A model generated the notes under the pieces. The model was not told the origin of the DNA. It saw only the letters and a program-made list of their open reading frames with translations, and did not search any database. From Candidatus Methylomirabilis sp. (GTDB lineage Bacteria > Methylomirabilota > Methylomirabilia > Methylomirabilales > Methylomirabilaceae): DNA of 14,910 nt. A program made the translations under genes and the position numbers. Where the stretch lies: the NCBI GenBank assembly GCA_041498975.1, contig JBGQJI010000055.1, positions 1 through 14,910 on the forward strand, read 5' to 3'. Below are positions 1,330 through 2,708 of this stretch, one piece after another. Each line of letters begins with the position of its first letter. The stretch's first letter is position 1.

Positions 1330-2226
1330 ATGAAAAAGCTGGACCGCCTGGGCTGGGCGGCCGGTCTATCCTGCATCAGTTACGGAGCGCGGATAGGCAT
1401 CCGGGTTAACACTCCATCGGCCCTGGAACCGCTGGTCGAGCGCTTCCCGCCGGGCTGGAAGCTTGCCCCGTCGCCGGTCGTGGACCGCTTGTACTCTGTG
1501 ATCGTCGGTGGCTCGGTGGCGCCCCATCACGTGCGTCGCTTCAATGTGCTCTACGGGAATATTGAGACACTGGCTCGGTCGATGGAGCTCGACCAGGTCT
1601 TCGACAGCTTTGAATCGAACCTTCAGCTCTACGTGGCGGAGACGGCGAGGCGCAGGGTATTCGTCCATGCGGGCGTCGTCGGCTGGGGAGGGCAGGCCAT
1701 CGTCATCCCTGGACGTAGCTTCAGCGGCAAGACGACCCTGGTGGCTGAGCTCGTACGGGCTGGGGCAACCTACTACTCCGATGAATATGCGGTGTTGGAT
1801 GGCCGTGGGCGCGTGCATCCCTACCCGAAACCGATGTCGATACGGCAACCGGTGACCGGGAAGCAGAAGAAGCACCCGCCTGAAGCACTAGGCGGTCTCT
1901 CAGGAGCCAAGCCTTTGCCGGTGGGGATGGTCGTCGTAAGCGAGTACAGGCCAGGGGCGCGGTGGCGCCCCCGTCTGCTCTCGGCGGGGCAGGGGGCGCT
2001 GGCGCTCCTATCCAATGCGGTATCGGCCCGGCGACAGCCGCACGTCGCGCTTGCCACACTGAAGCGGGTGGTGTCTCAGGCGCCGGTTCTCAAGGGTGTG
2101 CGAGGCGAGGCCAAGGAAGTGGTCGATTCGTTACTCAAGGGCTTCAGGGGCGGAGCGGGCGTCAGTTCCGATACATCGCGAAGGAGTTCTGGGAAGGCCG
2201 TTACCAGTGTCCGGGAGGTAAGATGA
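1330..2226 (+). CDS. HPr kinase-related P-loop Ser/Thr kinase
   Basis: VHAGVV followed by Walker A GRSFSGKTT (from 1711) and YYSDEYAVL, the HprK-like catalytic pattern. TGA stop overlaps the next ATG (ATGA 2223-2226). Confidence 0.85.
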   Translation: MKKLDRLGWAAGLSCISYGARIGIRVNTPSALEPLVERFPPGWKLAPSPVVDRLYSVIVGGSVAPHHVRRFNVLYGNIETLARSMELDQVFDSFESNLQLYVAETARRRVFVHAGVVGWGGQAIVIPGRSFSGKTTLVAELVRAGATYYSDEYAVLDGRGRVHPYPKPMSIRQPVTGKQKKHPPEALGGLSGAKPLPVGMVVVSEYRPGARWRPRLLSAGQGALALLSNAVSARRQPHVALATLKRVVSQAPVLKGVRGEAKEVVDSLLKGFRGGAGVSSDTSRRSSGKAVTSVREVR

Positions 2227-2708
2227 AAGAAAGGGTAGATCGATTAGTGCCTCATGCGCGGAAAGATGGGCTGGTGGTTCAAGAGCTGGCAGAGGAACTG
2301 CTGGTCTATGACCTGGAACGGCACAAGGCCCACTGCCTGAATCGCACCGCCGCCTGGATTTGGAAGCACTGTGACGGCCGGACGACTGTGGCAGAAATCG
2401 CCCGGCTTCTGCAAGCAGAGTTGAAAGGACCCGTAGATGAGGAAATGATCTGGTTTGCGGTGGATCAACTGGGGAGAGACCACCTGTTGAGAGAGCGCAT
2501 TCCGCGCGCCACGGACACGGTAGGGATGTCGCGGCGGGAGTTGGTGAAACAACTCGGCGTGGCGGCGATCGTCGCGTTGCCGTTGGTCACCTCAATTATA
2601 GCACCGACAGCGAGCCAGGCGGTATCTTGTACTCCCTCCGGTCAACCATGCGGCACTCCCGCCCAGTGCTGTACGCCCCTCTGCAGTGCTGGCACCTGCG
2701 GCACATAG
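2223..2708 (+). CDS. PqqD/RRE-domain protein fused to a Tat-like signal segment and a Cys-rich C-terminal peptide (putative RiPP precursor, 161 aa)
   Basis: True start is likely ATG 2223 (GGAGG upstream, coupled to the kinase stop) rather than 1962. Residues ~10-90 are PqqD-like (ELLVYDLERHKAHCLNRTAAWIWKHCDGRTTVAEIA). Then MSRRELVKQLGVAAIVALPLVTSIIAPTASQA and VSCTPSGQPCGTPAQCCTPLCSAGTCGT. Confidence 0.85.
   Translation: MKERVDRLVPHARKDGLVVQELAEELLVYDLERHKAHCLNRTAAWIWKHCDGRTTVAEIARLLQAELKGPVDEEMIWFAVDQLGRDHLLRERIPRATDTVGMSRRELVKQLGVAAIVALPLVTSIIAPTASQAVSCTPSGQPCGTPAQCCTPLCSAGTCGT

Follow-up and report, generated by a model that had tools for sequence, protein, structure and literature searches.

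Why would a peptide-recognition domain be encoded in one chain with an export-type signal that lies behind it rather than at the N terminus? This question is raised by a gene (2223..2708, + strand) in a 14,910-nt stretch of DNA from Candidatus Methylomirabilis sp., an uncultured sediment bacterium (assembly GCA_041498975.1, contig JBGQJI010000055.1), which we refer to as the window and whose coordinates are used throughout. Based on the open reading frame (ORF) and its homologues, the 161-amino-acid product of this fusion gene consists of a recognition element (RRE) of the type known from peptides that are ribosomally synthesized and undergo post-translational modification (RiPPs), a linker, a segment resembling a signal for the twin-arginine translocation (Tat) pathway, and a core with six cysteines. 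The cis design that joins RRE and Tat-like signal is real and widespread, and it is apparently undescribed: literature searches, in which coverage of subscription journals is sparse, yielded no description of an RRE–Tat-signal–precursor fusion or of an RRE–knottin design. On balance, we lean toward reading the fusion gene as a self-guided precursor of an exported, disulfide-knotted mini-protein.

One chain from recognition domain to cysteine-rich tail

The ATG at 2223, with GGGAGG located 4 nt upstream, is the true start of the fusion gene. A preliminary description of this DNA had noted a PqqD-like domain followed at Met102 (ATG 2526) by S-R-R-E-L-V-K, a hydrophobic stretch and P-T-A-S-Q-A, and the ORF contains all of these in that order, the stretch being uncharged. 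The feature had been delimited as 2223..2621, which is correct as far as the cleavage-like site; the ORF, however, continues to 2708 with a 28-residue, six-cysteine tail, which is likely the product of the gene. The central claim of that description, a cis fusion that places an RRE before an internal Tat-like signal, holds as a conserved design of the family, with R104 retained in 270 and R105 in 268 of 270 aligned proteins.

Residues ~8–95 are a genuine PqqD/RRE domain of the lasso B1 type. The winged-helix domain (residues 10–90; 2250..2492, + strand) is matched over residues 26–70 by the PqqD profile PF05402 (E 4e-10; 40.3 bits, the cut-off being 23.4), as are all 146 aligned members of the family, so the earlier concern that the N-terminal domain might fail PqqD/RRE hidden Markov models (HMMs) no longer applies. 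The AlphaFold2 fold of the 161-residue protein, obtained from a 146-sequence alignment, has a mean predicted local distance difference test score (pLDDT) of 85.3 and a predicted template modeling score (pTM) of 0.71, and its RRE comprises strands 17–21, 26–30 and 35–39 and helices 41–48, 56–67 and 73–85. Residues 8–95 superimpose on TbiB1 (5v1v_A) with a VIA-align Z of 9.8 and a root-mean-square deviation (rmsd) of 2.0 Å over 86 residues (86/88 of TbiB1), and on FusB1 (6jx3_B) with a Z of 9.6; rmsd values for the two range from 2.0 to 2.2 Å over 83–86 aligned residues. Foldseek TMt values against lasso B1 structures are 0.77–0.80. Within the domain, C38, N40 and C50 are near-invariant.

The RRE is followed on the + strand by a variable linker (residues 91–101; 2493..2525), a Tat-type n-region (residues 102–111, M-S-R-R-E-L-V-K-Q-L; 2526..2555) with the arginine pair encoded at 2532-2537, and an h/c region (residues 112–133; 2556..2621) ending in S-Q-A, a site like those cut by signal peptidase I. 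The uncharged stretch spans residues 111–134, and P-T-A-S-Q-A occupies residues 128–133, ending at nucleotide 2621. The segment thus combines S-R-R-E-L-V-K, an uncharged h-region containing G, A, T, S and P, a proline at −6 and S-Q-A as an A-x-A-type site. Its arginines, at residues 104–105, lie behind a folded domain and not at the N terminus, where a Tat signal is normally located.

Residue counts were taken from the alignment of 270 proteins together with 84 complete genes from related loci, and column entropies from 347 distinct sequences. Beside the arginines, position 103 is S, T or N in 262 of the 270 proteins (S 211, T 29, N 22), positions 107–108 are hydrophobic, and position 109 is R or K in 236 (R 163, K 73). 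Further along the signal, G112 is kept in 249, P120 in 262, S124 in 239, P128 in 267 and A133 in 248 proteins; position 122 is V or I in 269, small residues occupy position 131, and position 135 is S in 115, T in 98 and N in 44. The motif [STN]RRx-hydrophobic-hydrophobic-[KRGQ] occurs in 324 of the 347 sequences. Mean column entropies are 1.30 bits for the h/c region (112–134), 1.56 for the RRE, 1.58 for the n-region, 2.58 for the core without its cysteines and 2.89 for the linker, with 0.26 for the cysteines themselves. The h/c region of the signal is the best-conserved segment, the core between the cysteines is hypervariable, and the conservation of the arginine pair, its flanks and the signal site is far beyond chance. 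The preliminary description would have lost its footing had the pair not been conserved; both arginines are present together in 268 of the 270 proteins.

The family is large. Among proteins clustered at 90% identity, 1545 of 88–282 amino acids match at E ≤ 1e-3, and the 120 listed of these 1545 are 155–184 amino acids long with query coverage of 86–100%. A HMMER scan of 1.84 billion representatives from 50% clustering gave 6252 matches at E ≤ 1e-3, of which 4050 remain at E ≤ 1e-10 and 413 at E ≤ 1e-30. A search of contigs found 277 stretches that encode a relative, of which the best 80 (78 loci) were analyzed; nearly all of these best 80 relatives belong to Acidobacteriota (Blastocatellia, Pyrinomonadaceae). 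Of the 151 genomes sampled within Methylomirabilota, 16 contain a match at E ≤ 1e-10, the source genome and genome G047 (partial match only) among them, and near full-length matches occur in 8 genomes; in the source genus, 1 of 17 other genomes matches. The distribution is therefore patchy. Several loci carry two or three copies of the fusion gene with different cores (L001, L014, L018, L039, L053 and L044, the last with copies at 3024-3521, 4907-5425 and 6001-6513 of that locus), and in L044 the kinase and nucleotidyltransferase genes described below stand on either side of just one copy. Such multi-copy loci have the pattern of multi-precursor RiPP loci. With regard to the DNA itself, four runs of DNA contigs were compared: contigs in two of them span the fusion-gene stretch without differences and may be the source data, and short pieces from other organisms in the same runs match the gene only at ~2268-2354 and 2554-2620.

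The predicted core comprises residues 134–161 (28 amino acids; 2622..2705, + strand) and reads V-S-C-x6-C-x5-C-C-x3-C-x4-C-G-T, with its six cysteines in the C-C-CC-C-C pattern of knottins. In the AlphaFold2 model (core pLDDT ~90) it is predicted to adopt an inhibitor-cystine-knot (ICK)-like fold, which matches 1hvw, a variant of omega-atracotoxin-Hv1a, with a Foldseek TMt of 0.80 and an rmsd of 0.8 Å over 24 residues. Among 268 proteins, 189 have six cysteines after the arginine pair, 36 have eight and 16 have ten; 101 show the spacing 6-5-0-3-4, and 177 have a single residue past the last cysteine. The window tail falls under the cut-offs of the Pfam families of ICK toxins (Conotoxin_I2, E 0.014), and homologues P0008 (Toxin_12) and P0013 and P0032 (UPF0506) exceed theirs. 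At E ≤ 1, 58 of the 146 members match Conotoxin and 47 match UPF0506, and the family profile matches the spider venom peptides 5fzw and 5fzv at E 0.02–0.04. A look-up of the tail in the ESM Atlas gave no usable match. Because the core has six cysteines and is knot-like, it would require an oxidizing compartment.

Proposed docking, modification and export

The preliminary description had proposed that the RRE binds its own leader, and further that it would recruit the enzymes and may mask the signal until modification is finished. A leader-like motif, a predicted strand, covarying residue pairs and the unusually strong conservation of the h/c region, which a generic signal peptide would not show, favor binding of the leader. 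Its statistical side is weaker, since a phylogeny-aware test was underpowered and several of the couplings rest on few sequences. Positions 117–122 read V/I/L-x-x-P-x-V/I in 320 of the 347 sequences. According to the text of Popov et al. (PMC13381572), RREs of lasso peptides and of linear polyphosphorylated peptides (LPPs) bind a [Y/W]xxPx[V/L] leader motif, the residues after this motif add a strand to the RRE sheet, and N33 of LppB fixes the kink at P-13 of LppA. By analogy, V/I/L-x-x-P-x-V/I resembles this leader motif, and we propose V117-x-x-P120-x-V122 together with strand 122–126 (2571-2600, + strand) as the element that docks on the RRE. In the AlphaFold2 model, the part after the RRE contains helices 104–111 and 113–118, which are broken and do not form a single long helix, then a five-residue strand (122–126) directly after the motif, and the tail (pLDDT ~90). 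Because no other sheet is long enough, this strand would pair with the sheet of the RRE, its presumed partner. A complex prediction of the RRE (1–98) with the signal (99–135), run without controls, scored 0.03 against a mark of 0.32.

Covariation was analyzed by mean-field direct coupling analysis (DCA) of the 347 sequences (Meff 250). Pairs between the RRE and the signal rank high: H37–S124 is second, N40–P120 sixth, M75–I125 ninth and H34–A130 tenth, A43–G112 and C38–P120 are also found, and among the 80 highest-ranked pairs, 23 connect the RRE with the part of the protein beyond residue 100. Internal controls appear in the same list, including C136–C150 (cysteines 1 and 4 of the core), V18–L27, L27–C38 and helix–helix packing pairs. 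The first of these is a hint at the 1-4 bond of the knottin disulfide pairing 1-4, 2-5, 3-6. Indirectly, DCA thus links the h/c region to strand 3 and helix 3 of the RRE. The near-invariant N40 closes RRE strand 3, and its pairing with P120 parallels the contact between LppB N33 and the kinked P-13 of LppA in the LPP system. Taking motif, model, couplings and conservation together, we consider it more probable than not that the RRE docks the signal in cis, or in trans from copy to copy. Docking would have to hide the h-region, because the docking motif sits within it; that the kinase or nucleotidyltransferase triggers release of the signal is speculation on our part.

These enzymes are encoded in a + strand row with the fusion gene: peptidase C25 (1-1257), kinase (1330-2226), fusion gene (2223-2708) and nucleotidyltransferase (2760-3860). 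The kinase gene (298 amino acids) has TIGR04352 (HprK_rel_A) as its best NCBIfam match (E 4.9e-16), and its translation contains a Walker-type GRSFSGKT. Its AlphaFold2 model (pLDDT 86.7, pTM 0.82) matches ATP-dependent PEP carboxykinases (E 1.6e-5) and HprK/P (2qmh_B, E 2.9e-4; 1jb1, TMt 0.60) in Foldseek, which supports assignment of the predicted product as a P-loop kinase of the HprK/PEPCK fold. The TGA stop of this gene overlaps the ATG at 2223 (ATGA), suggesting translational coupling of the kinase and the fusion gene. The nucleotidyltransferase (366 amino acids) belongs to PF14907 (NTP_transf_5; E 4.2e-31). Sequence searches of the PDB with the kinase and the nucleotidyltransferase gave no meaningful match. 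Neighbors were counted around the 84 complete related genes, in subsets with enough flanking DNA: the kinase lies directly upstream of the fusion gene in 39 of 76 and the nucleotidyltransferase directly downstream in 43 of 73, and among the 66 genes with room on both sides, both enzymes are adjacent in 29 and one in 17, i.e., at least one in 46. The source genome has a single copy each of the C25, kinase, fusion and nucleotidyltransferase genes.

Two ideas on the phosphorylation site were rejected. Against a lasso-type C-terminal serine, no more than 60 of 268 proteins end in S or T, without enrichment beside the enzymes. Residues 135, 103, 123, 124 and 151 were rejected as sites that track the presence of the enzymes, no difference having been seen.

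As for the route of export, the near-total retention of both arginines points to Tat rather than Sec, and the core would be exported by Tat. Profiles of Tat signals match the family weakly: at E ≤ 1, TIGR01409 matches 52, TIGR02811 91 and PF10518 10 of the 146 members, and the window protein matches TIGR02811 with E 0.0078. The source genome (2.68 Mb, 241 contigs, 84.9% complete) encodes TatC in two pieces at contig ends (C157:5210-5536 and C71:11448-11720, covering profile positions 1–92 and 120–208), a split that seems due to the assembly and not to damage in the gene. It also contains three TatA/B-type matches and one bacterial signal peptidase I; an archaeal-type SipW-like peptidase (TIGR02228) was not found in this 84.9%-complete genome.

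In the pathway that we propose, the RRE would dock the h-region of its own signal in the cytoplasm, with V117-x-x-P120-x-V122 and strand 122–126 placed on strand 3 and helix 3, and would thereby hide the signal. The kinase, and then the nucleotidyltransferase, would modify the precursor in this docked state; Ser/Thr135 is a possible site, 15 residues past the proline and so at the same spacing as the phospho-Ser3 of LppA. Upon release, Tat would export the core while the RRE remains cytoplasmic, and the housekeeping signal peptidase I would cut after the A-x-A-type site (A133) to yield a peptide of ~28 amino acids that may fold as a cystine knot. The C25 peptidase may further process or place this peptide. 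Such a pathway would be LPP-like with merged or replaced parts: RRE and precursor would be one chain, the leader would at the same time direct export, the cassette lacking an ABC exporter, and there would be no dedicated SipW-like leader peptidase. An extension of it, in which the RRE is a built-in Tat proofreading chaperone that holds the h-region until the kinase and nucleotidyltransferase have acted, so that modification licenses export, strikes us as tentative and somewhat unlikely.

Several observations weigh against parts of this pathway. The H37–S124 and N40–P120 couplings involve near-invariant positions and rest on few odd sequences, and some inter-domain DCA pairs fall on strands 1 and 2, beyond the expected reach of a docked leader. 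A phylogeny-aware independent-pairs test of 9 residue pairs, with results for 7 of them, had 1–13 contrasts on supported branches, a median p of 1 and no significant pair, and was underpowered. With TIGR01409 the window protein scores 12.6 bits, under the cut-off of 16.7, and a PF10518 match to it was not reported. The kinase, at 58.7 bits, is far under the TIGR04352 cut-off of 200. Neither enzyme is adjacent to the fusion gene in 20 of the 66 related genes. No candidate phospho-site follows the presence of the enzymes, and the variation at position 135 includes threonine in 98 of 270 proteins, a residue that LppK did not accept according to the text of PMC13381572.

Three other explanations of the same gene need to be considered. 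The preliminary description had offered ATG 2526 as an alternative start, from which translation would also or mainly yield a 60-amino-acid prepeptide with an N-terminal Tat signal, leaving the upstream part to act as an RRE in trans. Met102 lies two residues before the arginines, the usual position for the start of a Tat signal; an ATG is found at this column in 29 of 84 related genes as well; and a sigma-70-like hexamer pair, a consensus match only, occurs within the RRE-coding part at 2421-2449 on the + strand (TTGAAA, 17 nt, AATGAT), 77 nt before ATG 2526, in a promoter-pair scan that gave 2 sites in 4.4 kb against 0.6 expected. However, methionine occupies this column in only 80 of 270 proteins (L 104, V 31, I 27), which does not bear out the conservation of Met102 that such a start would predict, and a start codon occurs in just 38 of the 84 genes (ATG 29, GTG 6, TTG 3; non-start 46). 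The GGTAGGG noted before ATG 2526 runs directly into it with no spacer, which makes it poorly placed as a Shine-Dalgarno sequence. None of the 84 complete genes has a stop or frame break between the two parts, and a word-based search of limited sensitivity found no stand-alone short homologue of residues 99–161. An internal start at 2526 is thus disfavored, and we give it very little weight.

The other two explanations accept the single chain and reinterpret its signal. The RR-hydrophobic segment could be an uncleaved signal anchor of a bitopic membrane protein, with the RRE in the cytoplasm and the knot displayed outside as a ligand or sensor tied to the polysaccharide genes nearby. Residues 111–134 have membrane-spanning length, R104, R105 and K109 satisfy the positive-inside rule, and the cassette lies in polysaccharide loci (Wzc, Wza, Wzy_C, TPR-CBM) both here and in relatives. 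Tat signal anchors occur in Rieske proteins, and the family profile weakly matches the N terminus of the arsenite oxidase Rieske subunit (E 0.43). A plain anchor, however, would have no need of A133 (248/270), a small residue at 131 or P128 at −6 (267/270); the core is hypervariable and present in multiple copies per genome, like secreted peptides; and AlphaFold2 models no continuous helix. We consider an anchor improbable. We rate just as low the possibility, raised in similar form in the preliminary description, that the arginine segment has only the look of a Tat signal and serves instead as a motif by which the RRE or the enzymes recognize the protein, with export by Sec/YidC or another route. 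The conserved positions may indeed serve docking instead of targeting, the window protein is under the Tat HMM cut-off, and the h-region is fairly hydrophobic, with no basic "Sec-avoidance" residue following it in the c-region (21/270 proteins have K or R at position 129). Sec signals, on the other hand, tolerate lysine, whereas both arginines persist here in 268 of 270 proteins, with flanks that fit the Tat consensus (S/T/N at −1, two hydrophobic residues, K/R). The source genome has Tat genes, and a folded N-terminal domain ahead of the signal would seem to suit post-translational Tat better than co-translational export by the signal recognition particle and Sec.

If the self-guided precursor reading is true, it would link RiPP biosynthesis to Tat and suggest that Tat quality control can also act in cis. 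A single chain would hold everything from the recognition domain through leader and export signal to the core, so that no separate chaperone, exporter or leader peptidase would be needed. The family would represent a very large pool of hypervariable bacterial cystine-knot peptides (6252 clusters at 50% identity), a scaffold prized in toxin and drug research, and its precursors would be candidate substrates of the pairs of HprK-related kinase and PF14907 protein that have no known target in databases. If the more tentative extension holds as well, in which modification licenses export, no RiPP-like pathway before it would have used Tat with a leader that doubles as the signal. Thousands of soil bacteria would then make phosphorylated or glycosylated cystine-knot peptides of a conotoxin-like scaffold, and the missing type of substrate for orphan HprK-related kinase systems would be supplied.

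Surroundings of the gene row

The C25 gene, truncated at its 5' end by the start of the window, is probably the first of the same-strand row. The part present (1..1257, + strand) belongs to the gingipain/PorU-like C25 peptidases (PF01364, E 6e-83), contains GHG and TCLNGYF motifs that resemble the His and Cys sites, and matches PorU models weakly and under cut-off. To judge from its sequence, this stretch, which adjoins the kinase gene upstream, would be the C-terminal catalytic part of a large exported C25 cysteine peptidase. Full-length C25 proteins of related loci have 993–1647 amino acids, with signal-peptide-like N termini, a C-terminal C25 domain and domains of extracellular type (LTD, CarboxypepD_reg). 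Of the 66 related genes with enough flanking DNA in both directions, 33 have a C25 gene in the locus, located before or after the cassette. Cyclotide-like cyclization and PorU-like C-terminal sorting by the C25 peptidase were considered and rejected, since 177 of 268 proteins have only one residue past the last cysteine and hence neither a follower nor a sorting domain.

Genes of polysaccharide production and export lie further along on the − strand, as identified by a family scan: a TPR + CBM_4_9 protein (6070-7434), a Wzc-like tyrosine autokinase (7367-9718) and a Wza-like exporter (9795-10835). Polysaccharide genes recur beside the cassette in related acidobacterial loci (TPR + CBM_4_9, Wzy_C, GNVR/Wzc-like kinase), and this recurrent placement, which LPPs share, may point to a function in biofilms or at the surface of the cell. 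Among the scanned ORFs of the window and of six annotated related loci, there is no ABC exporter and no lasso cyclase or B2 protease domain.

The remaining features of the window are mostly on the − strand. A 426-amino-acid protein (4212-5492) combines a DnaJ J-domain with a predicted membrane segment and, at its C terminus, a SnoaL-like domain, and the start of its gene is overlapped by 4 nt by a 132-amino-acid ORF without a family match (5489-5887). A protein of 453 amino acids (10884-12245) shows a weak FecR match, an internal repeat present twice (IPVYDQSG[RK]S.GY...DG.F..SP.IT) and a hydrophobic Gly/Ala-rich C-terminal tail, and one of 335 amino acids (13018-14025) has no family match and consists of two similar halves (GGGVFKF/I.DE.TG..L.LEFV ... 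LYD.DFWV). A tRNA-Glu gene with anticodon CTC lies at 14271-14346 (+ strand).

Comparison with known systems

The core shares its cysteine pattern and predicted fold with animal ICK peptides such as the conotoxins of framework C-C-CC-C-C and spider toxins. In contrast to those, it is bacterial and comes with a Tat-like leader and an RRE, and the likeness may be convergent. For the signal, the nearest parallels are the Tat proofreading chaperones TorD, DmsD and NapD and the internal Tat signals of actinobacterial Rieske proteins. With the former, the fusion protein would share a cytoplasmic domain able to bind an RR signal and perhaps to delay export, and with the latter it shares a Tat motif away from the N terminus. 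The chaperones, however, act in trans, have other folds and serve cofactor-containing enzymes, whereas the proposed binder, an RRE, would here be part of the chain that it binds, with a small peptide as cargo.

Another relative is the HPr-rel-A system of NCBIfam (TIGR04352, kinase A; TIGR04353, PqqD family chaperone), which we take to be a database-defined system with a discrete chaperone and no named substrate. TIGR04352 is the best match of the kinase, and 79 of the 146 family members match TIGR04353 at E ≤ 1 (best 1.4e-5). The kinase, however, scores 58.7 against a cut-off of 200 bits, and the RRE of the window has no TIGR04353 match at E ≤ 1.

Phosphorylated and phosphoglycosylated lasso peptides (paeninodin, pseudomycoidin), as presented in parts of PMC8498205, share a B1-type RRE, an HPr-kinase homologue and a nucleotidyltransferase with the system described here, and TbiB1 and FusB1 are the closest RRE folds. 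In contrast to the lasso systems, there is no lasso cyclase or B2 protease among the window ORFs, and where the lasso kinase targets a C-terminal serine, the last residue here is S or T in 60 of 268 proteins, the same with or without the enzymes.

The closest published system is the LPP family of RiPP clusters, LppA/B/K/N/S/D, from Bacillota (Popov et al., Nat Commun 2026, PMC13381572). As set out in that text, LppB is a discrete RRE, the HprK-like kinase LppK polyphosphorylates Ser3 of the core, LppN is a PF14907 nucleotidyltransferase, the SipW-like peptidase LppS cuts at a site presented by the RRE, an MsbA-like exporter is present, and the clusters lie in capsule loci; supplement file 1 of the paper assigns both LppN and PbaN to PF14907 and PbaK to TIGR04352. 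The two systems have in common (i) a lasso-B1-type RRE with an HprK-like kinase and a PF14907 nucleotidyltransferase beside it and no macrolactam cyclase, (ii) a setting in polysaccharide loci, (iii) an x-x-P-x-V leader motif and, directly after it, a strand, which in LPPs pairs with the RRE sheet and here is predicted and would do so, (iv) an asparagine at a strand end that holds the Pro kink, N33 in LppB and, putatively, N40 here, (v) leader removal of signal-peptidase-I type, which we infer for the fusion protein, and (vi) spacing. The distance from proline to cleavage agrees within one residue, P-13 being 12 before T-1 in LPPs and P120 being 13 before A133 here (−14 if the cut follows A133), and position 135 lies 15 residues after the proline, as does phospho-Ser3.

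The two systems also differ. LppB is discrete, whereas the RRE here is fused to the precursor; the Y/W of the LPP leader is replaced by V/I/L, and the YxxPxVLxHQxIxFETxxS consensus is otherwise missing; and the leader instead carries an invariant arginine pair and an uncharged, Tat-like stretch of membrane length. Neither a SipW-like peptidase (TIGR02228) nor an MsbA-like exporter is among the window ORFs, nor was TIGR02228 found in the 84.9%-complete genome. The core is six-cysteine and knot-like, a C25 peptidase is often present, and the hosts belong to Acidobacteriota and further phyla of soil and sediment, as opposed to the Bacillota of the LPPs. In its main text, PMC13381572 mentions no signal peptides or Acidobacteria and uses "fused" only for experimental tags; its supplement contains acidobacterial SpI–RRE pairs of another kind. 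As far as sequence comparison goes, what is new relative to LPPs and paeninodin is the cis fusion, the Tat-type leader, the predicted knottin core and a cassette that has no dedicated peptidase or exporter.

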